The notes under the pieces: model-generated
Seen by the model: only the letters and a program-made list of their open reading frames with translations
Told to the model about the DNA's origin: nothing
Database searches by the model: none
Program-made: the position numbers and the translations under genes
IMG/VR virus record: IMGVR_UViG_3300025602_000002
Coordinates: 102,718 to 166,717 of that record
Length of the DNA: 64,000 nucleotides
Direction: 5' to 3' (one strand)
Source of the DNA: a virus
Lineage: Duplodnaviria > Heunggongvirae > Uroviricota > Caudoviricetes
In this document: positions 2,673-64,000 of the stretch, piece by piece
Numbering within the stretch: the stretch's first letter is position 1
How the letters are laid out: each line of letters begins with the position of its first letter

Positions 2673-2676
2673 ATTG

Positions 2677-2752
2677 TGGCCGGGACAGGGCTCGAACCTG
2701 TAGCTGACAGGGATTTAGAGTCCCCCGCTCTATCCAATTGAGCTACCCAGCC
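2677..2752 (-). tRNA. Amber suppressor tRNA (anticodon CTA); amino-acid identity undetermined
   Basis: GGCTGGG TA GCTC AATTGGATA GAGC G GGGGA-CTCTAAA-TCCCT GTCAGCT ACAGG-TTCGAGC-CCTGT CCCGGCC A. Positions 34-36 of the 7-nt loop are CTA, with U33 and A37 present. The acceptor stem pairs with one G-U. Confidence 0.7.
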
Positions 2753-4352: not shown

Positions 4353-4720
4353 TAATTATTTTTGATTGTTATCGTTATTTTTGTATCTTTGGGAATTAGT
4401 TCCTTTCCTGGGCACCATCTCGGACTTGGTATATCTCCAAAAGTAGTAAAGCAGTTTTCGCCTCCAATTTTTGGAAAAGTTGTTACCTTACAGCAATACT
4501 GCATGTACTGTATTCCCTGCCCATTTGCAGTATATTCATGAGTATCTACCAAGTATTTACAACCGTTACAATACTGATCGTAGTTATCTATTTCCCAAAT
4601 GGTAGCTAAGTCATATCCTTTACTTTCACAGGTAGGGCAAGGAATTGGCCACGGTACTAAACCTTTAGCGTCATATTTACCCTTACCCTCGCACGTTTTA
4701 CAAACTATTTTTACTTTCAT
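4352..4720 (-). CDS. Cys-rich, probably zinc-binding, protein
   Basis: CxxC pairs: CKTCEGKG, CPTCESKG, CNGCKY. Confidence 0.4.
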   Translation of the reverse strand: MKVKIVCKTCEGKGKYDAKGLVPWPIPCPTCESKGYDLATIWEIDNYDQYCNGCKYLVDTHEYTANGQGIQYMQYCCKVTTFPKIGGENCFTTFGDIPSPRWCPGKELIPKDTKITITIKNN

Positions 4721-5271
4721 TAGCAGTTACCTATAAATCCACGATCCTCTTGTAAAGAATCATAAATATCGGGAATTAACCCCTTTTTAAATCTTTGTTC
4801 TTTCCGATGAGCTAATACTACATTTACGGCTGCTGCTAAATTAGTACAGTGGGCCGTGGGTAGTACCACAAATCGATGACAATGTTGTAATGTTTTCCAA
4901 TCCAGCCCACCATCTTCTGGGCCGAATACATACACTGCGTTTTCAGGATGTTCAAAATCAAATAACATTTCAGATCCAGGCCTTAATTCTATTGCTACCG
5001 GAACTGTGTCTTCGCTAAAATTTTTCAATGTATGTTTTAACGTATCAACTCTATGCATAGATACTTCTTTGTATCCCTTCATACGTTCTTCCCTTGGAAG
5101 TCTATATTTTTCTGTCCATTCATCTGGATGCTGCACTCTATGTCCAGTCCAATAAACTTGCTCTGCTCCCCAACATGACGCTGCCCTAACTGTAGCTCCA
5201 ACGTTAACTGCAAACTTTGGGTTTGTCAGCATTATTGCAGGAGATATACCTTTAATTCTTTTAGGCTTCAT
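4720..5271 (-). CDS. SpoU/TrmH-family (SPOUT) RNA 2'-O-methyltransferase-like
   Basis: Motifs AVYVFGPEDGGL and FVVLPT...NLAAAVNVVLA match the SPOUT motifs II and III. Confidence 0.45.
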   Translation of the reverse strand: MKPKRIKGISPAIMLTNPKFAVNVGATVRAASCWGAEQVYWTGHRVQHPDEWTEKYRLPREERMKGYKEVSMHRVDTLKHTLKNFSEDTVPVAIELRPGSEMLFDFEHPENAVYVFGPEDGGLDWKTLQHCHRFVVLPTAHCTNLAAAVNVVLAHRKEQRFKKGLIPDIYDSLQEDRGFIGNC

Positions 5272-5631
5272 TTATAGCTCCTTAAACTCTTCCACAAATT
5301 TTGCCCAGGTTCCTGCATGGTCTAATCTAATGGATATTACATTATCATTATATCCGCATTGTATATAAGTACTAGATATGGAATGTAGTGTATAAGCCAC
5401 TGCCATACAAGGGCCCGTGATATCCATATTAGCATACGGAGTCCCATGTAATATGCTAATTATGTCAGGATCTATTATTTGGGCATACTTATTAACATCG
5501 CATGAGTCGCGGAGTCCTGCCTGTACTATAGCTCCTCGTATTAGTGTTAGGGCTTCTATCTGCCAAGTTTTTTCTGAATAGGTAGGGACTACTGGGTTAG
5601 TATAATCTTTATATGTTTTAATTTGTATCAT
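5272..5631 (-). CDS. Hypothetical protein
   Basis: ORF of 119 aa. Confidence 0.35.
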   Translation of the reverse strand: MIQIKTYKDYTNPVVPTYSEKTWQIEALTLIRGAIVQAGLRDSCDVNKYAQIIDPDIISILHGTPYANMDITGPCMAVAYTLHSISSTYIQCGYNDNVISIRLDHAGTWAKFVEEFKEL

Positions 5632-5639
5632 TTTATTTT

Positions 5640-6330
5640 TTGGTTAAGTTATCAGTTATAAACTAAATCGCCGAATAGAAGGGATCTTGGGGCTCTATTC
5701 GACGACTCTTCTCCAGTATTGCTACTGGGTAAAGGTGTTTCAAGTTGTTCAGGTCGCTCACCGAGGATCTCATGAATGTTTGGCGTTAGTTCGATCGGTG
5801 ATCAACCCGATAGCGTAGGCCCTCTCAACAGATCGCTGTGTGCGATACATCCTCTGTTCCAATCGTACATCCTCTGTGCCCTCAAGGCAACTTGAAAGTT
5901 TAATTAATGTATATAAATAGTGTGCTGTTACGCCAAAGACAACTAGGAGGCACTCCTAGCTACAGCCCCCAATGCCTTTTCCCTGGAGGTAGATTTTATC
6001 CAACTGCTACGTCATGTTTAGAGCATGAGTTATCACTCTTTAAAAGATGGCTGCTTCTAAGCCTACTTCCTACTTATAATTTGGTCGCGAGTGTAGTTTA
6101 TTACACTACATTCCCTCTCTAACAAAGAGGTTCCTAGACTTAGACGAACTCGCGTTAATTGGTGGGGAAGTACAGGATCTTGCACCTGCGCTGATATGCA
6201 TCAGCATATATCCGGATAACTTCCCCTCTAGCAGTTAGGATAGGACTTAAACCTATATATGTTACTAATCGCCAGTGACTGTTCACGCCACCCGTTTTTC
6301 ACATGTCTTAGTCTATTTGGACGACCTAAC
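5640..6330. other. GC-rich structured noncoding region upstream of a tRNA cluster
   Basis: No ORF of 60 aa or more on the gene strand. GC content is visibly above the AT-rich coding regions. Stable hairpins such as CTAGGAG-GCA-CTCCTAG are present. Confidence 0.4.
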
Positions 6331-6545: not shown

Positions 6546-6614
6546 TTTGATTTTTAAATTGGTAGCTCTCAACCTCAGCTCATGAGGCCACGGTTTTGTG
6601 CACTGAGAGCCTTG

Positions 6615-6686
6615 TAGCGGGAGCGGGGATCGAACCCGCGTTGAAAGAGTTATGAGTCCTTTCCGGAAGCCAACATCCTTCCCGCG
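6615..6686 (-). tRNA. Atypical tRNA-like element with a CAT anticodon motif
   Basis: Perfect T-arm GCGGG-TTCGATC-CCCGC and a 6-of-7 acceptor stem, but the anticodon arm has a 9-nt loop ACTCATAAC. It may be a degenerate Met/Ile2-type tRNA. Confidence 0.3.
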
Positions 6687-10023: not shown

Positions 10024-10116
10024 TGGAGGAGAGGACAGGGATCGAACCTGCAGACCCCCTTGCGGGGGCGCACCGGTTTTCAAGACCGGCAGAATACCAT
10101 TCTCTTACACCTCTCC
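10024..10116 (-). tRNA. tRNA-Ser(TGA), class II
   Basis: Acceptor GGAGAGG/CCTCTCC, anticodon stem CCGGT/ACCGG with loop CTTGAAA, long variable arm GCGCCCCCGCAAGGGGGTC, encoded CCA. Confidence 0.7.
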
Positions 10117-13845: not shown

Positions 13846-14553
13846 TTATCGTTCTCTTCCATGGTAGTCGTTCGGATATAAATCTTCTGATAAGTCTGAT
13901 TGCCAGTACTCATGCGTATTTACATCCATGATAGTAAGTTTTCCTTCCCAACCTGATCCGGTGTCTAACATCCATAGATTGGAAATATTTAAAGGTTTAT
14001 CCGTTCCAAACATTCCTGTAGTTGTATGCCCAACGAATACCTCTTTATAATCTTTAAATTCACGCTTTTGAGTTACGTAAATTTTTGCCACTTCAATGAT
14101 GTGACGATTCCAATACAAATTATACGGATCCTGATCCCGGATAGGGACCTTTTGATCGAATCCTCCGTGTACGTAGATTTTGTTCTCATCATCGATGTGG
14201 TAAAATACTGTTTTGTTACGTAGATAATGTAGGTGCTTAGTTCTCCATTCTAGTGGGGCTGACACGTAGCTGGCAATTGTAGCCATACCACCTTGTCTAG
14301 TCCACAATGAGGGAGTTTGTCCATATTCTAACCACCCAAGTAGCCATACGTCGTGATTACCTATAACCTATATTAAATTCTTAATCTTTAAAAGTTCTTC
14401 GAAACACTTTGCCGTATCTGGCCACCCGTCATTTATATCGCCAAGAAAGACTAATGTATCCTCCTCATAATTGAAGTTAGAACGTTCGAAACATTGGAGC
14501 ATGCCCTGGTAATTACCATGTACGTCTCCCAGTACAAATATTTTATTTTTCAT
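13846..14553 (-). CDS. Calcineurin-like Ser/Thr phosphatase (PPP family) interrupted by one in-frame TAG at 14368-14370
   Basis: Track ORFs 14368..14553 and 13846..14307 share a frame. The translation reads ...GDVHGN...GDINDGW...KIKNLI-TAG-VIGNHDVWLLGWLEYG...HGGF. The PPP phosphoesterase motifs continue straight across the stop. Confidence 0.6.
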
Positions 14554-15825: not shown

Positions 15826-15834
15826 ATAAATTAG

Positions 15835-15906
15835 AGCCTAGGGAAGGAGTTGAACCTCCATTTCTCTTAGCGGACTAAGAGCGTCTTACCATTAGACGAC
15901 CACGGC
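15835..15906 (-). tRNA. tRNA-like element with an 18-nt anticodon arm (possible 8-nt anticodon loop)
   Basis: D-arm CGTC-TAATGGTAA-GACG and T-arm GGAGG-TTCAACT-CCTTC. The anticodon arm CTCTT-AGTCCGCT-AAGAG is one nt longer than canonical. The acceptor stem has two central mismatches. Confidence 0.35.
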
Positions 15907-15908
15907 GT

Positions 15909-15981
15909 TGGTTGGGGGTGTGGGATTTGAACCCACATTCGCCTGCCTCTGCAGACGTCCTTTACGTTGGATGAGCCCCCA
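15909..15981 (-). tRNA. tRNA-like element with encoded CCA and a tetraloop in place of the anticodon loop
   Basis: Perfect T-arm GTGGG-TTCAAAT-CCCAC and an ACCCCCA-A-CCA 3' end. The central arm is TCTGC-AGAG-GCAGG with only a 4-nt loop. Confidence 0.3.
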
Positions 15982-19992: not shown

Positions 19993-20768
19993 AATATTAT
20001 TCCAGCAATTCCAATATCGTCTGCGTTAGTAATATAATTTCTATTCCAGGTTTTCTTAAGAAACCTTAGTTTTCTTACAGCGAATGCTCCTGCGGCACTT
20101 GGGAAATGAGTGATGATATCATCAATCACTACTCTCTCTCCAGTATCCCTATCTATTACTTGGTCTATACCATCAGTAGTTAAAATTACCGAAGCTATCG
20201 GGTAATCAGGCTGAAATATAAAGGGCATTCCAGTTTCTAATGCTACATTGGTAGGATCCTCGTCACCATCATTCATGTGAACAACTGTTTGTCCTTTGTC
20301 CTTTAAACACTCTTTGTATTCTTCCTGATCTTTTCGAGTAATGTTATACGCAGGATAGTATGGAGTATTATGAGGTGATTGAATATCTATATGAAGCGGT
20401 CCTTCTTTTGAATCTAAGAAACAATGTCCATCTCCGGCCATAAGAATATAAAAGCTTTGTTTTTCTTTATTATAGATAGCTACCAACACAGTTGACAGCA
20501 GCATACGGCGGTCCAGGCCTTGGACATCAGTATAACCTTTACATAATTGAAGTTGCCACTCTAATTTTTGACGAGTCAGCTCTCCAAATTCTCTAATGGC
20601 TTGTTCTACACTATGGGCTATTAATCTAGCTCCAAAATCTGTGTGAGGAGCGCTTGAACACCCATCACATACAATAATATAAGCTATCTCATCTGTTTCC
20701 CCATGAAGTGTATAATCTTCACAAACCCGATGAGTGGCCCCTTGAATAAAATGTGAATCTATGTTCAT
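19989..20768 (-). CDS. PP2C-family Ser/Thr phosphatase-like protein
   Basis: GATHRVCEDY...IVCDGCSS...DDIGIAGIIL resemble PP2C motifs. The TGA stop overlaps the kinase ATG. Confidence 0.45.
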   Translation of the reverse strand: MNIDSHFIQGATHRVCEDYTLHGETDEIAYIIVCDGCSSAPHTDFGARLIAHSVEQAIREFGELTRQKLEWQLQLCKGYTDVQGLDRRMLLSTVLVAIYNKEKQSFYILMAGDGHCFLDSKEGPLHIDIQSPHNTPYYPAYNITRKDQEEYKECLKDKGQTVVHMNDGDEDPTNVALETGMPFIFQPDYPIASVILTTDGIDQVIDRDTGERVVIDDIITHFPSAAGAFAVRKLRFLKKTWNRNYITNADDIGIAGIIL

Positions 20769-20797
20769 AGTTTTCCTTTTAATAAGAACGAACGTAA

Positions 20798-20865
20798 CAG
20801 CGCGGATTGGATTCGAACCAATGTCTAGGGTATCCCCTAACTCTACCCTGCTGAGATACCGCCCC
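20798..20865 (-). tRNA. Short tRNA-like element (about 68 nt) with a tetraloop central arm
   Basis: T-arm ATTGG-TTCGAAT-CCAAT and a 6-of-7 acceptor stem. The central arm is TAGGG-GATA-CCCTA. Confidence 0.25.
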
Positions 20866-20896
20866 GTTACGCCGTTTCTTACGTACGTTTTGTAAG

Positions 20897-34133: not shown

Positions 34134-36913
34134 CTACTCCTTGTATTTTAACGTGTCTACTTCGTCTGGAATCCACCAATCGTAGTAATATTCATTATCA
34201 AACTGAACGTGATTGACCCACAAGTTGTACTCGCGTGCAGCCATCTCCGAACTGTTTTCCATTTTATGATGAACTAGGTCTCTAGATATCCATATACTGG
34301 CAAATAAACAGAATACTGCTATTAACTCCCAATATATAGCTTCTGTTTTCCATCTTGGTAATCCAATTGCTTGAAAATACCACGGTACTAAAAAACATAT
34401 AACTAGAAATCCTACTATCCATGATAACATCTTAACCTCCTTCCATTTTTCTTAATTCTTTAAAGCTTCGCCTTTAATTATTTGTTCTATAATCATTCCA
34501 GAATATTCTTCATCCTGATTTACAACCCAATAATTAGGTGCTGCTTCTCTTCCTGTTTTCTCTCTATATTTTTGTATTTTTATTATTATTGCCTGCAGAA
34601 CTAAGCGTTCATCAGGCTCTAGACCTTTGTCAATATCTTCAGTTTTCAGTATTAGGAATAAGTTGTCTTTTATGTTTACTGTACTCATCGGTCTAGATGG
34701 TTAGTTGTTTTATGCTTCTGCCTCTATTCCTGAGCTGGCAGTTGCTCGTTCGATACTAATTGTATCTATTGCTTCTCCGTCGTCTAAAGCTATAGCAGCC
34801 CTTACTAACGACTCAAGTTCGTACATGGTTACCGGTAAACAGGCTCCCAATCGATCTTCTTGATTTTTATGATGCACTACTTTTAATAAGTTTTGCATTA
34901 ACTTCATGTTATCTCCTTTTTCTTATACCTTATTTATTGTTATATTTTTGGCGTTCGCTGTTAGCTAATGCCGAGTATCTACTGGCATAATCCATTGAAA
35001 GTTTTTCAGATACGAAACTAGCCATATTTAAATGTTGAGAAAAGGAAACCATCTCTTCTCCAGGAGTAAACCAGAAAACTCTAACTTCTAAGATACCGTC
35101 TGCATTTTTTCTAAGAGAAAGCTCTACTCTATCTGCCTTTGTAAGTTTAAGAATTTGTTGAAGAGGCTTTATGTCGTTCATAATTTTACATCTCTCAGGT
35201 TTTGTCGTAAGATATCTCCTAAAACTACAACATAGTAAATAGTAGTATCCTCAAATAATATTTTAGTGTTTATCCACTTGCGAGTTACATAACTAGAGGC
35301 ATCTTCTTTATAAGTAGCATAAGATACCCCCATGTAGAACATCACCTCATCGAACTCTACCGGGATAGTGCCGGGTTCTAACTTCATAAGGACTTCTCCA
35401 CATTTAGGGAGAAATTCTACCTTATATTCTAAGATTTCACCTTTTACTATTTTTCTTAATATTTCAGCATTAGTATAGATCATTAGGGTTTTGTTCATTC
35501 GTTTTACAAAAGTCATTGGGGTGCTCATTCGGAACGGATCCCTCCCATTTTGAAAAAGTCTACATTACTTAACCCGGTAAATTTGAAAGAATCTCTGTCT
35601 TTTTTCGAGTATTTATCGCAGACATAATGTTCCATTTCATCAACAAACTGGTTAAAATCCATTTTGTTGAAATAGTTTATAGTATCAATAGCTTCTTTTA
35701 ATTCGTGAAAGTTATGTTTTATTTTTCTTATTGCACACCCGCCTTTAGTTGTGCGAACTATTTCAGTATTCATGAGTTCTCCCCTTTTGCTTATTATATG
35801 GTTCTTTCAAGTAAAAAAAATCACCTAATTCTGAACATTTTCCTTTTTCTGATTCGGTATAGCAGCATGTCCTATGATATTTATGTTTTTGATATTTCGT
35901 ATGACACACACATTCACAGCTTTCCCATTTTTCTTTTGGTTCTGGTATCTTATCCACCAACCATACCACGAAAGGAGTTTCCCAATAAAAATTACCAGAT
36001 TCTCCGGCTTCATATTGAGCTCTTACATTTTCCTCTCTCAAATACTGTTCCATTAGTTTTGTTAATTTCATTCTTTCTCCTTCGGCTTAATAGACTCAGC
36101 AAGCCTCTTGCCTAGATCTGTAGCGCATCTAACTATGTCGTTAGCCATAATATCTAAATACTGTTGAGTATAATTCTCAGGAATATTAAAACAGAATGAT
36201 TCGTCCTCTTCGTTAACAAAGGATATTGTACCTTCATATCTATCATGTCGTTTATGTTCTTTCTTTTCCCAACCATATCCTTGTTTAAACCTGATACTTA
36301 TATTATCAAGTTTCCAATTATTTTCCATTATTTCTCCTTATTTAGGGTTTAATAGCAACATACAAATCTAAGGCTTTATATATTATTTCGCCTTCTTGTA
36401 AATTCGCCCTCACCTTTTCTTCAATATTGCCCCACTCCATAAGATTTTTATAATTGTATCTTTTGTCATGAAAGAAATTAATACTTTTTAGCAAATCTTT
36501 TTCAATCTGTGTTAAATCATTTTTCATTTAGTCTCCTCCAGTTTCTCTGGTATACTGTTCATATAGGCAATCTAATTCACCTGCTGAAAACTCACAATCT
36601 AACTGAGTTGTCGGTCCATAATGACTTAGATGCCCTTCTTCTATTAACCATTCTATGAAGTCTTCCATTGTTGTTAGGTCCCCTTGATAAAATATGTTTC
36701 TTTGTGCCAATATGGGCTTTCTTTTACAACACTTCGATTTTTTTGTTTCTTAAAACATTTTTCACATACCCTGTGCTTTTTTGTAGCCATTCCAAAAGTC
36801 CAATAGATCCAGCTATGCCAGCAAAACCACTTTTTTCGTTGCTTAGTATGTAAAATTAGGTCGAGCTCTTCTCTAGTTAGTCTGTAACTTGTTGGGGTGA
36901 AATCAATTACCAT
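34134..36913 (-). other. Run of 11 small minus-strand ORFs (60-124 aa) of unknown function
   Basis: Track ORFs 34134..34430, 34452..34688, 34710..34907, 34930..35181, 35178..35528, 35525..35773, 35763..36071 (Cys/His-rich), 36068..36328, 36342..36527, 36528..36710 and 36674..36913. They are tightly packed, several with ATGA or TAAATG junctions. Confidence 0.4.
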
Positions 36914-45246: not shown

Positions 45247-45820
45247 AATACGCTTGTAAGATGGCACAGAGTGCACGGGCGTAAGGCCAATTTTTCAGGT
45301 GGCTTTCCTGGTATTCTTTTTATGGAAGATGAGAGTGGCTGAGGGGTAAACTCTTCTTCCGAGGGATGCAACTCCCTTTGCGAGACTTATTAATCCCCGC
45401 ACCACCTACGTTAAGTAGGAAGCCCTATCTTAAATTCTTTTCCAAATTGAAGGCTCTAGCCTTGCAACTCCTTCGGATAGACACCCAACGTTTTTATTAC
45501 GTCTTTGGCCCAGTTTTATGAAGTTTGTACTTTTCCTGAGAATACAGTTAGTACGGTATATCTTTAAAGGGATCATTTCAATTCCCCTCGTTTCCACGCA
45601 GACTTACGTCGTCGTAATACACCAATCACAGCTCCAGGTATGGAGCCAGGTCTTTCCACTTACATTAACTCTACAATTTCACGACTATCTTAGCTGCCGC
45701 CAAGCTTAACCGCTTCCTTATAAATACTGCTGCAACCCTTGCGAGGCGCAGAGCTCGACGTTATACAGGCCGATATTAGTGATCTTTTATTATAAGCAGC
45801 CAGGAATCTAATTGCTTTCA
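45240..45820. other. Structured GC-richer noncoding region at the strand switch
   Basis: No ORF of 60 aa or more on either strand except a short spurious one. Hairpins such as GAGGGA-TGCAAC-TCCCTT are present. It lies next to the tRNA-like element at 45824-45894. Confidence 0.35.
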
Positions 45821-45823
45821 TTA

Positions 45824-45894
45824 TAAATGACGAGAATCGAACTCGTGATCTACGGATTAATATTCCGTTGCTCTACCAACTGAGCTACATTATG
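45824..45894 (-). tRNA. tRNA-like element with an ATATTAA anticodon loop (positions 34-36 = ATT)
   Basis: Canonical D-arm GCTC-AGTTGGTA-GAGC and T-arm ACGAG-TTCGATT-CTCGT, with anticodon stem ACGGA/TCCGT. The acceptor strands pair poorly. Probably a pseudogene or unusual tRNA. Confidence 0.3.
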
Positions 45895-46428
45895 GTTTTT
45901 CTGTGATTGGGAGGACGCGTTCCCGGTTGTGGTTACGTAGTTTTCAGCCACATAATGCCACTCGCCCTCGTAAGTCATTAGCCATGACAGCCTCCGATCC
46001 TTCATCATAGTAGTTGTCTCTTCTTGACTTAGAAGCCAATGAAGGCCTCAATATCTTGATCCCGACAAACTATATAATTGATAACCCGCTTGACAGACAG
46101 GATATCTTGCGATTACTATACAGACATTTCTGCCTACCCCTCAGGGGATACGTATCTCGACCTTCACGCCTCGCAGTTAGCCTGGAGTGTTGGACTATTT
46201 TTTACAAGATAAATAGAAGTTCGCAGTGTATAAATGTTTGCACTCCCGAAGGAGAACAACGCAATGCCAGGTATAATTTCACAGACCCGACTGCTTTTAG
46301 TCCCATTGCTGGGGTTATCTTTAACTGGATGTCATACCACCCAGGTGCTAATTAAGGCTAAGCCTTGATTGCGAAATTCTTATACCAGAAAATATTGTTT
46401 TTTAAAAGACATTGGGTTATATTCAAGT

Positions 46429-47928
46429 ATGGAAAGAAATTATGAAGTATTTAGAGCTAGGGTAGTTTCAGTAGAGAGTCCTGATGTAAACGCCCTAGAT
46501 AAAAAAGACATATATATTCAGGCAATAGATGAGACAGATCCTGAGAAGACGTATTTGGCGTTACCTCCGATATTTATACCAACTTCTGCATTTGGGTCGG
46601 GAGTAGTATCAGTGCCTCCTGAAAATCAGGAGTGTTTGGTGGCCTTGGACAAATGAAATAATGTTGCACAGATTCTTACTTATATCCCCTCAGGACTATC
46701 TTCGGCCTTCGGCGGTTTATCTGCAGAAGCTGTACCAGAGGGGGGAGTGTTATTAAAAATAGGTGGAAAGAACAAAACTAACTTCCTAATGGCTCCAGAT
46801 GGATTCTTTAGTTGGTTTTCTAACGCCTTCGCTGAAATAACTTTGGATGGAGCTTATAAGAAACTAAATATTACAACTAAACGATATGAAAGACGAAGCG
46901 CAACTAATTTTGTTAGAGACTCATATCATCCTAAGAAATCTGCAGGAATAGATAAAGGAGCTACATCACATTTAGAAGTATATTCAAAGTTTGATGATAC
47001 TACTGGGTATCTTGACCATATCTCAGAAAACACTGAGACTCACCGCAGTATTCCTTTCAAGCACCAATTCACAGATCAAACTATTATAAAGTCTGGATAC
47101 ATACCTCATGTTAAGAATTTAAAAGGCACGCCTTATTCCCATTTGTATCAATTAGAGACTAGACAAGCTACTGGAGGTTCTAAACAGAAGAATACCTATA
47201 CTAAGTTACATCTAGGGTATCAAGGGGCTACAGATCTATTTGATATAGGAGAAGAACACCCGGCAGGTTCTTTATTTCATTGGGTATTTAAACGAGCAGT
47301 AACAAATAATAATAGCTCAATGATAAATAGATTTGGGAAATTAGAGTCCGGGAGTTTAGCGGGAGAGTTATATAGACATCAAATATATGATGGAACTTTT
47401 GATGCTACAGCCTGGAAAGCTGGGCAAGGTTACGATTATACTTTTATCAACACCGGAATTAAACAGCAATATGTAAGTAGTTTTGGCAAGTTAAACACGG
47501 GTAGAATATGAGGAAGACACATCCATCAGCTAGAAACCACAACTAATGGTAAAATGTATACTAAAGAGTTTGGCGGTACAGATATATTAAAGACAACAGT
47601 GCAGTCCGGGGATGTTGCAACTCCAGAGTTGAAATTGACAAAGACGTTAAATAATGAGGCATACACTGTTAAACTGAATCTAGGAGATACTACTCTTACT
47701 ATAACTTTGGATAGCAGCGGAATAACTCTTGACGTGCCTGAAGGTAAAAATGTGTATCTCGGAGGCTCAGAGGGTCAGACGTTAGTTACTAAAGAGTTTG
47801 TTACAGAATTATACGCGGGACATACACATGGTACAGGAGTGGGACCTTCGTCACCTCCAATAATTCAGCCAAGTATTTATGATCCTTTGGATGAGAATAT
47901 TTATACTGTGAAGACTTTATCAGAATAA
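46429..47928 (+). CDS. Structural (baseplate/tail-spike-like?) protein with in-frame TGA codons at 46654-46656 and 47509-47511
   Basis: Track ORFs 46369..46656, 46747..47511 and 47554..47928 are in one frame with no TAA or TAG. Coding-like composition continues through both TGA codons. The frame ends at TAA 47926. An ATG at 46429 follows a weak RBS. Confidence 0.55.
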
Positions 47929-48477
47929 TGTTAAGTGAAACTAATTTAAAGACTGAGCTAATCGCGGAGTTTTATAAGTATTATTATTTAGAAGGCGATA
48001 ACCGAATAGCTTATACAGTTGATGAAAAAAGCATCAGGTTAGGGGAGATTATTAGTGAATATATGAGCGAGGCTGTAGTAGGAGTTACTGGAATCACTAC
48101 AAACTTTTCTAATGTAGAAATAACTATACCCGAATGACCAGAGGTTGATGTATCTTTAACTTTTATATCTAACCCATTGGCGGAGATTTCAGGGTCTAGA
48201 GGTATATCTGATGAAGATTTACTAGCGGAAGCTACTACATTAGTACCTACAGCAGTAGGATTTATAACTTATACTCCTGTAGGACCAATAATACCCTTTA
48301 TAACACCCACATGAGGTAGCAGCAATGCAGAGTTAATAGCCCAAACTGTGGAGATCTTTTGTGAAGACTTGGCAACTAGTATCCATAACTATGTAAAACA
48401 AATAAAGTTTCAAATGACAGGAACGTCGGCAAGTGGTGTAGTACTTACAGTAGTATGGACTATAACGTAGATAATAC
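47928..48477 (+). CDS. Hypothetical structural protein with in-frame TGA at 48135-48137 and 48313-48315
   Basis: The frame of track ORF 47928..48137 stays open for 58 more codons, then TGA, then 54 codons, then TAG at 48475. Confidence 0.5.
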
Positions 48478-48550
48478 TTGACTAAAAACCTAAGCTTAGT
48501 TATATTGAAATGTTAGAAGAAACAAAGTTAGTGATTAATTGGAGATAATA

Positions 48551-50728
48551 ATGGACAACTTATTTATAAAGAACTCTTTTACTAAAACAGCGTCATACTC
48601 AGTGGATATGGACGCAACGAAGTGGGTTAGAAATGTAATTACGTATTTTTACGAACAATATCCGTTCGCTCAAAATCAGCCTGCAGTGGTTCAGTGGAAG
48701 AAAAAAGATAGTACAAAGGGATATGCGGTAGGGGTATTAAAGATATCCGGGGCATCCATACCAGTAGTAATCAAAGATTGGAAATTATCTCCTTTAGACA
48801 TAGTTATGGCAGGTGGAAGAACTTTACCACTTAATACTGAGGTGTTAAGAACTATGTTAACTTCGCCAGGAGCATTTGTAGGAGTAGCGTCGTCTCCTCC
48901 TAAATCAGGACTGGACATGTTCTCACAATTACAGTATTCTCCTGATGGGAGTATAAACAATTCAGCTAGCGAGTCTAGTTCACAAGAACGACCTGCTAAA
49001 ATAGCTTCATTTATTGACAAAATTGAGCATATAGACAAAAAAGCCGTTGTTGAAATACTAAATACTGTTAAAAACAACCCAGAAATCCATAATAACTTCA
49101 AAAAGACCGGAAGATTAGACGTTTTAGACAAACTAGCGTCAAAAACAGAGAGTCAAGAAGAAATCGTGGATTCTTTCATTAGGGACCTTGATATAGATAG
49201 ACAGTTAGTTATTAAAGACTCTTTAGGTAATCACACAGTTAAACAAGCTAATTCTAACATAGATTTTGTATGAGAACTCCCTATTAAGGCTTCAGAAGCT
49301 GAAGAATTTGAGATATTAACTGCTTCAAGTTTCCAAGAAAAGACTGCTGAGTCTGTAGATGCTAATTGCTACAAGATTTGGGACACTGATAGACACCTTA
49401 TGGTAACATCGGACAAAGATTATCATGATTTTAGTAGAAATGATGTGAAAACGGCTGAAGCATTTACTTTAGAAGAAGACCAACCACAAGTTGGTGATCT
49501 TGGCGTTTGAAAATTTGGAGAATCAGTCTCTGAACCTTTTGAAGTACTAGGAATGGACAAAGTATCGTCATATTCTTCAAATCTTTATAAACTAGACGGA
49601 GGTCCAGGGTATCTTAGCATCAGTAAGAATAAAGATTGGGTTATTTTAGAGAAATTAGGACAAAAGTCTTCAGAAAATGTAGAAATAGACGGAGATTTTC
49701 CTAAAATAGGAGATTTCGGAGCGTGAGTTATGCCTGATGGCAGTGCCACTAAGCCTTTTGAGATTAGAGAACTATTACAAGACTTAGAAGCTTCTAGCAA
49801 TAAACAAGTACAAGTAGCAGGTTGGGATGGATTGCAGAAGATTGCGTATTACCTGACTGAAATGCCTGTTAAGAGTCTGATGGACTCAGAGAATGGCGGA
49901 AAGTTACTACCTAAAGAAGCAAAGTTTGTTAAATTAGGCAAAGAATTAAGAAAAGTTTCTGAAGTTAGCGAGGATAATCAAGATACCCCATTAAAAGTTA
50001 CAGGATGGGCCGGAAGAGAAAAAGTATCTTATTACATCGACAACACAACTACTTCTGAAGCAAAATATGTAGAAAAAGAATCTAGTTGGTATTTATCTAA
50101 GGACGTGAGCTTCATTAAGCTAGGATCATACTTACAAAATGAAATACCACATACTGTTAAAGTAAATAAACACACAGTTGGAAAAGACTCTGTAGGCCTT
50201 TATTACTTAAAAGGTGCAGAGTTCTCTAAATATGCAGAAAACAGCCATGAATTACGTGATTTAAGCCTCTCAGAGGCAGAATGATCATTAATTCATTGTG
50301 GAGCAACCAAGACTGATATAAATAAGGCGGCAATGTTGCTGAAAGGCACTGAAATGCTAATTGCTTGTCCAATTGAAGCTCCTATACCTCCAAAAGTGTT
50401 TATTGATAAAATAGCAGAAACTTATGAAGATAGTACTAATGACATAGAGATGTTAAAAGTAGACTTAGTAAAAGAGGCTGCGGTTTTATCTGATAAAAGC
50501 ACTGTAGATGCTGTATTGTCTCTTGGAGCTATCAACAAACAGAATATTATAGAATACATAGCTCTATTACCTCAATATGAGATGATTATGAGTGAATTAG
50601 CCAAAATGCTGCTTATGACTAGGTTAGGTATGAGGCATCTTCCGGAGGAAGCCGTAAAGAACGCCATGGATTCAGTAACTAAAATAGTACTGTTGCTTAT
50701 GGGCGTTAACAAACTGTACTCTAATTAG
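48551..50728 (+). CDS. Large structural protein (about 725 aa) with in-frame TGA at 49271, 49508, 49724 and 50282
   Basis: Track ORFs 48539..49273, 49730..50284 and 50333..50728 share one frame. The 456-nt segment between the first two is open except for TGA. The ATG at 48551 follows a GGAG RBS. The gene ends at TAG 50726. Confidence 0.55.
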
Positions 50729-50736
50729 GAGATACT

Positions 50737-51153
50737 ATGAGATCTTTAGGGGATATGGCGCGACAGATGACTTCATTGCAGAAATTAGTGGTTAGCCAGA
50801 ATGATCAAGAAGGCGTAGACGAGGTTGTATATGAAAAGGCGTACGAGTCTACTGCAGGGGCAGATTCTATAGGGCGAAGTATTTATAACGAAGAAGATGG
50901 ATCAGTAATGATATTATCTTTGCCAGAAGGAACAGAGTTTCCACCACATACTCACGAAAATCCAATAGTAGAGTATGGAATCATATTAAAGGGGAGTATA
51001 AGAATTACACAAGAAGGAGTAGATGACGTAATCTATTCTTATCAAGACTGCGTAATTCTTAAAGATGAGGTTATGCATTCTGGAGTAGCTTTAGAAGATA
51101 CGAAGATAATCGCAATAACAATCCCACAAGAGTTAGGATACCCTGGAGCTTAG
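50737..51153 (+). CDS. Cupin-like small protein
   Basis: The ATG is preceded by AGGAG. The HTHENPIVEYGIILKGSIRI beta-strand motif resembles a cupin fold. Confidence 0.4.
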   Translation: MRSLGDMARQMTSLQKLVVSQNDQEGVDEVVYEKAYESTAGADSIGRSIYNEEDGSVMILSLPEGTEFPPHTHENPIVEYGIILKGSIRITQEGVDDVIYSYQDCVILKDEVMHSGVALEDTKIIAITIPQELGYPGA

Positions 51154-51182
51154 TCTCCACATTATAAAATAGGAATATTAGA

Positions 51183-51650
51183 ATGACTGATAAAAAAGGA
51201 CCAATGAGCTGAGAAGAGTTTTTCGTTAAAATCGGAGACAAAGTGGATGAGCATGAAAAGACGTTAGTGACTTTTACTAACGGTAAGTTTAAATCATTAG
51301 AAGATAATGTAGATACTTTAAAAGAGACAGTTGGGGGCATTAAGAATGATATGTCTGAGATTAAAAGAAGACTTCTAGATCCTGAAACCGGCGTAATTCA
51401 CAAAATGAATGAAGCTACGGTATATGTAGGCAAATTACAGAAAGAAGAAACGTTAGACCAGATCAAATTAGTCAAAAAAGCTAATACGAACGTTTCACGG
51501 TTATTCTGGCTAGTTATGACATTTGTTATAGGCTCTTTCTTATCTCAGGTCATACCAGACACTTGGTATCCATATTCAGATAAATATACACCAAAAATAG
51601 AAAATGTTCAGCCTGAACCAGTGATAATACCTGATACTATCGCTAATTAA
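51183..51650 (+). CDS. Hypothetical protein with in-frame TGA at codon 10 (51210-51212) and a C-terminal transmembrane helix
   Basis: ATG 51183 has an AGGAA RBS. It reads MTDKKGPMS-TGA-EEFFVKIGDKVDEHEK... and continues into track ORF 51243..51650. Confidence 0.45.
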
Positions 51651-51772: not shown

Positions 51773-52105
51773 ATGCACAATTCGCCTCTCTCGATTACAA
51801 AAGCAGCTGCAATACAGTTAGAAACTAAGAAAATTAGCTTAAATCACCCAAAATCCCACATATTAAACATAAAGTTGGCGCCAAATTACGAAACTGAGAT
51901 GGCACACTTCGATTTTACATATAAAGACATAAAAGATATTAAAAATATAGTGTATGATGATGACTATGCACACACCATGGATTCGGAAACTGCTATGTAT
52001 CTTCTTGGCAGTACATTAGATTATAAGGATAATAGACTTATATTCGATCATATGGAGCTAGATGGCTTAAATAACTTTAATAATATTGATAATAATAGCA
52101 ATTAA
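51773..52105 (+). CDS. Hypothetical protein
   Basis: 110 aa, TAA stop; last gene of the plus-strand block. Confidence 0.4.
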   Translation: MHNSPLSITKAAAIQLETKKISLNHPKSHILNIKLAPNYETEMAHFDFTYKDIKDIKNIVYDDDYAHTMDSETAMYLLGSTLDYKDNRLIFDHMELDGLNNFNNIDNNSN

Positions 52106-58005: not shown

Positions 58006-58227
58006 TTTTCTTCCTTTTTGCTATTCATCATAATTATTCGTTAACTTCAACTGGGTGGATACTAACAGGTCCATCATCGATAACTTCTTGCTTAGTCATA
58101 CCTACCATCCCCCAAGGGATGTCATAAGAATAGACACTCATTACCCACCAGTCTCAAGCCTTAATAGTCATATTTATTTTTCGGCTATCCTCTAGCGTGT
58201 TTACCAATTTCACCACTTCTCCACATT

Positions 58228-58653
58228 TTATAGAGGCCAAGTACTCTCGTGAGTTTCTATAGCTTTTTTCATTTCTTTAAAAACTTTTCTTTTAAAATGA
58301 AAGTTTTCTTGAGTAACCCAACTAGGGTATGTGTGCCATTGGCACTTAGTTTGTAATAATATGTATACATTTACAAACCCATAACGAACTTTAAGCCTAG
58401 TTTCTCTTTCAGGTATAGACACATATCGTTTTTTATAGAAGTAATGCCCATTGCAGTCTCTCTTTATGAATACATTAAACCACCCAAAAGGGTATCTTCT
58501 TAGTTTGCTAATAACCTTCATTAGCACAGATTTATTAAATCTTCTACAACCTATGGCTACTCCGTCAGCATAAAGATTAATTCGACGTGAGTCTTCCATT
58601 AATCCCCGATCTACAGCTTCCCATTTATCTGATATCAAGTATACAAAATTCAT
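58228..58653 (-). CDS. Paralog family C member 5 (dispersed copy)
   Basis: IGCRRFNKSVLMKVISKLRRYPFG...FKRKVFKEMKK matches the family at 52673-54370. Confidence 0.45.
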   Translation of the reverse strand: MNFVYLISDKWEAVDRGLMEDSRRINLYADGVAIGCRRFNKSVLMKVISKLRRYPFGWFNVFIKRDCNGHYFYKKRYVSIPERETRLKVRYGFVNVYILLQTKCQWHTYPSWVTQENFHFKRKVFKEMKKAIETHESTWPL

Positions 58654-63965: not shown

Positions 63966-64000
63966 AAGATTTCTAAATTGTCCGAAAAGTGTACAAGCTA

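Follow-up and report, generated by a model that had tools for sequence, protein, structure and literature searches.

In-frame TGA codons at tryptophan positions mark the rightward genes of a marine jumbo phage

A 64,000-nucleotide (nt) stretch of phage DNA (Caudoviricetes; IMG/VR record IMGVR_UViG_3300025602_000002, positions 102,718 to 166,717), referred to below as the window, contains one rightward gene block at 46.2-52.1 kb whose reading frames are crossed repeatedly by TGA and by no other stop codon. We propose, with a probability of about 0.82, that the rightward units of this phage (this block of tail-spike and possible lysis genes, and at least two flanking blocks) are written in genetic code 4, in which TGA specifies tryptophan, that the leftward genes keep the standard code, and that the opal (TGA) codons form a timing lock. 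A host that terminates at UGA would leave the rightward, presumably late, genes incomplete until the phage changes the reading of UGA; the opal codons would then act as a lock on tail and lysis functions, one that would follow from UGA termination in the host before the phage makes its switch. Stop-codon recoding of late phage genes is already known, and the present case joins that class; the pattern matches known phage recoding, as an earlier note made from the sequence alone had expected.

The source is a marine jumbo phage with a genome of at least 212 kb. When window proteins were looked up by exact match in public contigs (HAWL17-1 scaffold_55, 138,951 bp, and a contig of 211,738 bp), ~9.4 kb of flank was gained on each side, giving 83 kb in total, or ~40% of the genome; ~60% lies outside. 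The left-flank locus is called L003 and the right-flank locus L004, and the minus strand of both corresponds to the plus orientation of the window. Genes in the window were called with our own codon-usage caller under code 11 and under a code with TGA as sense. The window has a G+C content of 37% and is dense in leftward (minus-strand) genes. The phage is present in 59-75 blocks of public assemblies from marine metagenomes. Searches of GenBank phages by blastn and tblastn gave no match, nor did a scan of IMG/VR with peptides of the third block gene, w3. A scan of genome contigs for more of the phage genome returned nothing, and a scan of metagenomes yielded no more than two short contigs, both from the same strain.

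TGA is the only stop codon within the rightward frames

Stop-codon maps of the plus strand reveal four long frames in which every stop is TGA: frame 0 from 46231 to 47926 (TGA at 46366, 46654 and 47509), frame 2 from 47892 to 48468 (48135 and 48312), frame 1 from 48536 to 50726 (49271, 49508, 49724 and 50282) and frame 2 from 51165 to 51648 (51210). TAA and TAG are absent from all four. The earlier note had claimed that TGA is an in-frame sense codon throughout this block and that TAA or TAG never interrupts its frames; both claims are borne out by the three-frame maps, with one site moved from 48313 to 48312. Reading TGA as sense yields joined open reading frames (ORFs) of 565, 226 (180 from the ATG), 730 and 161 codons. 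The re-prediction that the note had suggested as a check reduces the gene calls of the block from 13 to 6 and raises its coding fraction from 83% to 95.5%, with a change across the whole window of only 83.0% to 83.6%.

The composition of these stops departs strongly from expectation. TGA makes up 27% of the off-frame stops of the rightward genes, and all nine in-frame stops are TGA (p ~8e-6). Internal TGA and TGG codons occur at 11:14 in rightward genes, compared with at most 1:279 in leftward genes (Fisher p = 1e-12). The six genes of the block (w1 to w6, Table 1) end in TAA (three) or TAG (three) and never in TGA. In a codon-usage scan for stops that have strong coding potential to either side and lack a further stop within 40 codons, coding signal flanked the TGA codons at 46654, 47509, 48135 (score 12.5 upstream and 14.0 downstream), 49271, 49508, 49724 and 50282. 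No other TGA free of neighbouring stops was found in the rest of the window, and none on the minus strand. The minus-strand TAA and TAG sites returned by the scan are ordinary same-frame gene boundaries, with the exception of a TAG in a phosphatase gene. The base 3' of the TGA sites (T, A, G, C, G, G, A, G, T, G) shows no common context. Predicted peptides across the sites, with TGA read as Trp, include IDFVWELPIK, IGDFGAWVMPDGSATKPFEIR and DLSLSEAEWSLIHCGATK. For two of the codons, at 46366 and 51210, the true gene start may come after the codon.

The TGA codons are not assembly errors, because the TGA-ended fragment 46789-47511 was called with identical sequence in 63 blocks of public assemblies and 2.2 kb of flank recurs at 100% identity in an independent marine assembly.

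TGA aligns with tryptophan in homologous proteins

Alignment to homologues shows Trp or another aromatic residue at five of the six block sites that could be aligned; the sixth, 46654 in w1, lies in a variable loop. In w3, aligned with seven homologues (P0001-P0007), TGA 49271 and 50282 fall on nearly invariant Trp columns, and TGA 49508 and 49724 lie in repeated GDxGxW motifs in which the closest relatives have Trp and others Phe. In a 42-member alignment of the w1 family, TGA 47509 occupies an aromatic column (Y 18, W 6, F 4) in which the closest members have W. Given Trp or aromatic residues at the aligned sites, TGA is assigned by these alignments to Trp (code 4), not to Gly (code 25) or selenocysteine (Sec). 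The homologue alignment that the note had proposed as a choice between Trp and Gly is thereby settled as Trp. Reading TGA as Gly was rejected since Gly is the commonest residue only at the 46654 loop and all other aligned sites are Trp or aromatic.

The use of TGA is partitioned by strand

The leftward genes, ~150 of them across the 83 kb, are intact under the standard code. The 105 minus-strand calls in the window end in TAA (72), TAG (18) or TGA (15), with several of the TGA stops in ATGA overlaps, and they contain 279 TGG codons and no credible internal TGA. Where code 4 creates an apparently internal TGA on this strand, the codon sits at the extreme end of the ORF, as part of a false upstream extension or as the real stop. 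Two short, low-scoring minus-strand calls are exceptions: one lies inside a non-coding RNA of the GOLLD type and the other is a 68-codon ORF at 58034-58240. The earlier description of TGA as a normal stop in minus-strand genes therefore stands, with ~15 calls ending in it.

The same note had held the recoding to be confined to one transcriptional module, which proved wrong, since PhoH on the left and a 578-amino acid (aa) protein with its neighbours on the right also carry TGA. Public calls cut the rightward PhoH gene at its TGA into pieces of 102 and 133 aa. Once joined, the protein aligns with PhoH structure 3B85 from one end to the other (E = 9e-34); its TGA falls on the Phe of a conserved GFLPG motif. 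In the right flank, the 578-aa Gly/Ala/Lys-rich ORF runs on through two TGA codons for ~100 codons (GAALGA-TGA-SGTKW...NY-TGA-AVNPE). Two neighbouring ORFs of that block have an internal TGA, and a 114-aa protein labelled Mito_carr is also found there. A Gly/Ala-rich protein of 683 aa is listed with PhoH among the rightward products of the flanks. Across the 83 kb, with three rightward blocks, the partition of sense TGA by strand is absolute.

A syntenic contig of a relative (L001) carries the same genes in the same order: a w1 homologue, two small genes, a w3 homologue and, further on, a tail-fibre protein. One of the two small genes matches Pfam CIS_spike_tip (E = 1.7e-15). The L001 versions are intact, with no in-frame TGA and with Trp encoded by TGG only; the recoding is therefore a derived trait of the lineage of this phage. 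Within the reach of sequence comparison, these data show that TGA stands in frame and has been read through over evolutionary time at positions where relatives have Trp, that its use is partitioned by strand, and that the relatives are not recoded. The spike-tip gene of L001, its downstream tail-fibre gene and the XhlA-like match of w5 would fit a late module.

Genes of the rightward block

Table 1. Coordinates of the recoded genes and of the features discussed with them (positions in the window unless a locus is named; strand in window orientation)
Feature	Coordinates	Strand	Remarks
PhoH, rightward	L003 ~20088-20810, ~8.5-9.2 kb left of window position 1	+	split by in-frame TGA
Second rightward block	L004 1-3126 and L126, 6.2-9.3 kb right of window position 64000	+	
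tRNA(CUA), amber-suppressor type	2676..2752	-	ARAGORN; Rfam tRNA 58.9 bits
Lambda-phosphatase/ApaH-like metallophosphatase	13846..14553	-	one in-frame TAG, 14368-14370
GOLLD-type large non-coding RNA	45533..45970	-	Rfam RF02032
w1, central-spike-like tail protein, ~520 aa	46369..47928	+	in-frame TGA 46654, 47509; 554 aa from ATG 46264
w2, 180 aa	47928..48470	+	in-frame TGA 48135, 48312; stop TAG 48468
w3, conserved phage protein, 725 aa	48551..50728	+	in-frame TGA 49271, 49508, 49724, 50282
w4, cupin-domain protein, 138 aa	50737..51153	+	Pfam Cupin_2, E = 3.8e-7; ends TAG
w5, coiled coil and C-terminal membrane helix, 135-155 aa	51183..51650	+	TGA 51210 start-dependent
w6, 110 aa, last of rightward block	51773..52105	+	0 Trp codons

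The gene bounds given in the earlier note held in part: the joined frames were right, the second gene ends at 48470 instead of 48477, and the start of w1 at 46429 probably makes the gene too short, as sequence shared with relatives (F-x-KDI) already appears ahead of that position. The comparison makes TTG 46369 or ATG 46264 the more likely start. ATG 46264 is the only w1 start with a strong Shine-Dalgarno sequence (AAGGAG, 9 nt), and a frame opened there crosses TGA 46366. The ORF 46264-46368 (+), in the w1 frame and ended by that TGA, encodes a lipoprotein-type signal (LLGLSLTGC). Under code 4 this signal would be fused to w1, and under code 11 the ORF is a 34-aa peptide; the extension is absent in relatives.

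Joined w1 shares 30% identity with an intact 583-aa protein of L001 in a 540-aa alignment that crosses both TGA codons, and its full-length homologues (~480-690 aa) align straight across the TGA sites. A C-terminal motif, H-x-H-P-T...GPPSPP, is common to part of the family. Assignment of w1 as a spike protein is only partly shown; it draws on synteny with the spike-tip gene of L001 and on the HxH motif. The 42 family members gave no informative domain in Pfam, profile searches of PDB sequences with the w1 and w3 families gave nothing meaningful, and an AlphaFold 2 (AF2) model of a w1 homologue, built from a three-sequence alignment, reached a predicted local distance difference test (pLDDT) score of only 29.5. 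The start of w2 overlaps the stop of w1 (ATAATG).

Gene w3 starts at an ATG with a GGAG ribosome-binding site and encodes an N-terminal domain, repeated small beta domains with the GDxGxW motif and a helical C-terminus. The seven homologues P0001-P0007, of 697-730 aa, span 95-100% of joined w3 at 30-39% identity. An AF2 model of P0002 (pLDDT 75.7) found no match in PDB at E <= 0.001 with Foldseek; the same model gave one credible match in BFVD, an uncharacterised Caudovirales protein (E = 1.3e-27). A search of the joined proteins against structural profiles, which the note had advised, divided in its outcome: joined w1, w2 and w3 have no match in Pfam or PHROGs, and full-length homologues do span the TGA positions.

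The remaining genes are smaller. No Trp codon, TGA or TGG, occurs in w4. Weak similarity links w5 to XhlA-type "hemolysin" lysis-associated proteins (phrog_937, E = 9.5e-4); TGA 51210 lies inside it only if translation starts at ATG 51183 or 51204, and the alternative start GTG 51243 has a GGAG site. At the syntenic position in L001, a 115-aa protein is 32% identical to w6. The label "structural-gene block" used earlier is only partly borne out: the spike assignment draws on synteny and the HxH motif, w3 matched no protein of assigned function, w4 is a cupin protein, and PhoH, which is also recoded, is not structural.

Public gene calls of the phage use code 11, and in them the recoded genes appear as fragments of 36-240 aa. 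One copy at NCBI was placed in a metagenome-assembled genome of "Candidatus Scalindua sp." (HOG49_12940), probably a binning artefact involving a phage contig.

Transfer RNAs and an amber codon

The window holds 23 transfer RNA (tRNA) genes predicted by ARAGORN and two further tRNA-like Rfam matches; with the flanks, ~35 tRNA-type genes cover all 20 amino acids. The only stop-codon-reading tRNA among them is tRNA(CUA), which is well formed (G1-C72, A73, 7-nt variable loop) and reads TAG, not TGA. A tRNA-Trp(CCA), 85% identical to E. coli tRNA-Trp, lies ~0.6 kb upstream of the right-flank rightward block on the opposite strand. A suppressor tRNA as the driver of recoding, part of the earlier claim, was therefore not found: the ~35 genes include no UCA anticodon, only CUA and the tRNA-Trp(CCA). 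Intron and low-threshold ARAGORN runs added only degenerate tRNA-like elements, none with UCA. Three candidate decoders were rejected: a Hirsh-type opal-suppressor tRNA-Trp, because U11:G24 is wild type; a tRNA embedded in the GOLLD RNA, because its anticodon is AUU; and an Rfam tRNA-Sec match at 10028-10116, whose anticodon UGA reads UCA and makes it a tRNA-Ser.

Non-standard tRNA-like genes at 15834-15906, 15909-15981, 20797-20866 and 6614-6686 (all minus strand) include forms with anticodon loops of 6 or 8 nt and a weak extra tRNA-Met-like element. One of the odd loops has GGGG, as in +1 frameshift suppressors, and none of these genes carries UCA. A transfer-messenger RNA (tmRNA; L003 17093-17466, Rfam 85.3 bits, tag GRPAVKLAA) lies beside the tRNA island, ~5.5 kb left of the window; it may matter where late messages stall at UGA before a code switch.

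Amber (TAG) suppression presents a separate case. The leftward phosphatase gene contains one in-frame TAG, between its GDxxDG and GNHD motifs. The joined 235-aa protein aligns across this codon to residues 4-211 of lambda phosphatase (PDB 1g5b), and homologues have Tyr (13/19) or Phe (4/19) at the site. On 33 contigs the public calls give just the 153-aa piece downstream of the TAG, and the interruption is population-wide. The in-frame TAG, together with tRNA(CUA), suggests that amber suppression operates in this phage. TAG is not generally reassigned, since it terminates three of the six genes in the rightward block and 18 leftward genes. Wider TAG recoding was rejected, as the other in-frame TAG junctions are ordinary boundaries; at 34136, for example, an RNase T-like gene starts two codons later.

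Weighing the explanations

Several observations weigh against code-4 rightward genes under a timing lock. No tRNA with a UCA anticodon was found in the 83 kb by ARAGORN (standard, intron and low-threshold modes) or by Rfam at gathering and relaxed thresholds, and the Pfam labels of called genes in the same 83 kb include no release factor 1 or 2 (RF1, RF2) and no tryptophanyl-tRNA synthetase (TrpRS). The anticodon of the tRNA-Trp is CCA, and its U11:G24 pair is wild type. At TGA 46654, Gly is the commonest residue (13/41). PhoH, which is recoded, and the cupin protein w4, which is not, are not classical late genes. Finally, the support is evolutionary in kind. A standard-code host (suggested by the standard-code leftward genes), late expression of the rightward genes (suggested by gene content and precedent) and a role of the codons as a timing lock are what we infer. 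The decoder would most likely be a tRNA(UCA) or another factor encoded in the ~60% of the genome beyond the 83 kb; failing that, the phage's own tRNA-Trp(CCA) might read UGA after anticodon modification or the disabling of RF2. Published surveys report a UCA tRNA in only 35% of code-4 phages, so its absence is typical of the class. An unlikely elaboration is that UGA is switched with no UCA tRNA at all: tRNA-Trp(CCA) would read UGA late through modification or editing of C34 or through a disabled RF2, and UAG would be tolerated by way of tRNA(CUA). Candidate agents in the tRNA island would be a SpoU methyltransferase (4720-5271), a kinase together with PP2C (18.3-20.8 kb) and an element that mimics the GTPase-associated centre of 23S ribosomal RNA (rRNA) (6019-6077). 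If this were true, UAA would be the only unconditional stop, and one virus would show time-resolved suppression of two stop codons.

Other explanations dispense with a switch made by the phage. The host might itself use code 4, with UGA as Trp and no RF2, in which case the strand contrast would reflect gene history or mutation bias. The lack of a phage UGA decoder in the 83 kb would then be expected, and read-through of leftward genes that end in TGA would be tolerable, as their next stop lies a median of 9 codons downstream. Organisms with code 4 normally prefer TGA for Trp; however, the leftward genes, at 37% G+C, have 279 TGG and no credible internal TGA, TGA closes 15 of them with several ATGA overlaps, relatives of the recoded genes use TGG only, and the phage tRNA-Trp, 85% identical to that of E. 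coli, is of the standard-code type. We regard a code-4 host as distinctly improbable. Slightly less probable still is that the TGA codons are leaky stops that throttle expression through near-cognate read-through by tRNA-Trp, with no reassignment. The only Trp tRNA seen does have a CCA anticodon, and a spike is needed in few copies per virion. Bacterial read-through of UGA amounts to a few percent per site, and such a throttle fails because a gene with four such sites would yield almost no product (~1e-6 for w3, and 1e-3 to 1e-4 for w1 with its two or three sites); the sites also fall on conserved Trp positions instead of domain boundaries and share no 3' context.

Two further possibilities merit very little credence. 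One is that the block consists of decaying or defective pseudogenes, or arises from an assembly or sequencing artefact, as the fragments of 36-240 aa in the public annotation of the contig might imply. Against this, the frames are broken by TGA alone, never by TAA, TAG or frameshifts, the interrupted positions align with Trp, the codon-usage signal is strong throughout, and the sequence is identical in the 63 assembly blocks and the independent marine assembly. Equally remote is that TGA encodes Gly or Sec. Such a reading could appeal to the Gly majority at 46654 and to the tRNA-Sec-like Rfam match, but the five other sites align to Trp or aromatic residues, that match is a tRNA-Ser by its UGA anticodon, and the ten sites, spread over five genes, share no downstream hairpin of the kind expected for Sec.

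Relation to known recoding systems

Code-4 phages of the gut, such as the "Agate" and "Jade" clades, show recoding biased to late and lysis genes, with close relatives in the standard code, and control of late translation was proposed for them (Borges et al., bioRxiv 10.1101/2021.08.26.457843). A jumbo-phage survey of 2026 (PMC13037316) also describes this, in broad terms. The present phage resembles the Agate and Jade phages in having in-frame TGA at Trp positions and standard-code relatives, and in those clades, too, a cognate suppressor is often undetectable. In Agate and Jade, it is the structural and lysis genes that have gathered TGA, and early and replication genes lack it. The work on these clades reportedly appeared later in Nat Microbiol (2022). 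Unlike these phages from animal and human gut, ours is a marine jumbo phage, its recoding is sparse (~10 codons in 6 kb, a window-wide gain in coding density of only 0.6 points), the partition by strand is strict over three blocks, and its on-board suppressor reads TAG. The "code-change operon" of Jade, with RF1 and TrpRS, was not seen in the 83 kb.

Other systems offer partial parallels. Like the crAss-like and Lak phages of code 15 (TAG to Gln; PMC9523058), this phage has a tRNA(CUA) and at least one gene with an in-frame TAG; unlike in those phages, TAG still terminates genes, and the single gene with an internal TAG aligns there to Tyr, not Gln. Mycoplasma and Spiroplasma, which use code 4, and their phages are alike in reading UGA as Trp beside UGG. 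They have TGA genome-wide, a tRNA-Trp(UCA) and no RF2, whereas most genes here avoid TGA and some terminate with it. Decoding of UGA by tRNA-Trp(CCA) is known from the Hirsh suppressor (G24A) and from C34-to-U editing in trypanosome mitochondria. As in those cases, the only Trp tRNA found here has a CCA anticodon and stands beside genes that need UGA to be read as Trp; in contrast to them, U11:G24 is wild type and no editing or modification enzyme was identified in the 83 kb.

A single virus with two genetic codes divided by the direction of transcription offers a clean and checkable case. The abundance of the phage in marine metagenomes means that the timing lock and the inserted residue could be tested in metatranscriptomes and metaproteomes that already exist. 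Public calls fragment the tail-spike-like w1, the 725-aa w3 and PhoH, and screens that look for a 10% gain in coding density would not flag this genome because the recoding is so sparse. Partial recoding is probably under-counted outside gut viromes. The tRNA-rich region, which has a tRNA-Trp(CCA) and an amber suppressor and no cognate suppressor, sharpens the question of how UGA is reassigned in most code-4 phages.

Neighbouring non-coding RNAs and leftward genes

The GOLLD-type RNA lies next to the start of the recoded block and is transcribed divergently from it. Over model positions 1-416 the match scores 124.8 bits (E = 4.6e-34), just short of the 150 that Rfam sets as its curated cut-off. 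Its linker contains a tRNA-Asn-like element at 45822-45893 with the anticodon AUU and an imperfect acceptor stem (tRNA model 58.7 bits). GOLLD RNAs with linker tRNAs and lysis-associated expression have been described (PMC12286853).

In the leftward genes, a tRNA island is accompanied by an AAA ATPase, SPFH proteins, a weak kinase match with PP2C, many small ORFs and a set for the salvage of nicotinamide adenine dinucleotide (NAD) comprising NAPRTase, NadE, NMNAT and Nudix. Between 11 and 45 kb of the window, the minus strand carries an RNA repair and translation set of Rnl1- and Rnl2-type ligases, PNKP, a Thg1-like protein and RlaP, along with an RNase T-like exonuclease, NADAR, a SpoU methylase, the kinase-like protein and PP2C, and full NAD salvage.

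A 59-nt element at 6019-6077 (-), within a non-coding region of ~5300-6330, copies the L11-binding GTPase-associated centre of bacterial 23S rRNA (helices 43-44). Helix 43 is identical to the rRNA consensus, helix 44 is cut to a 4-bp stem with a GAUA loop, and the Rfam large-subunit (LSU) model matches at positions 1089-1152 with 29-34 bits (E = 4e-7 to 8e-7). An 18-mer of the element, GGCTTAGAAGCAGCCATC, occurs in at least 117 IMG/VR viral contigs. Among the matches listed, real 23S sequence follows in no case, and the surrounding frame is ggRNgtN-[18-mer]-NNNtaaRgagt throughout; all 12 loci checked (12/12) belong to tRNA islands, often with a tRNA 20-30 nt upstream. The element falls in no Rfam family, and a literature search found no description of it. 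It has the look of a phage mimic of rRNA that is widespread and apparently not yet catalogued. The SpoU-family methyltransferase gene lies ~750 nt downstream of it.

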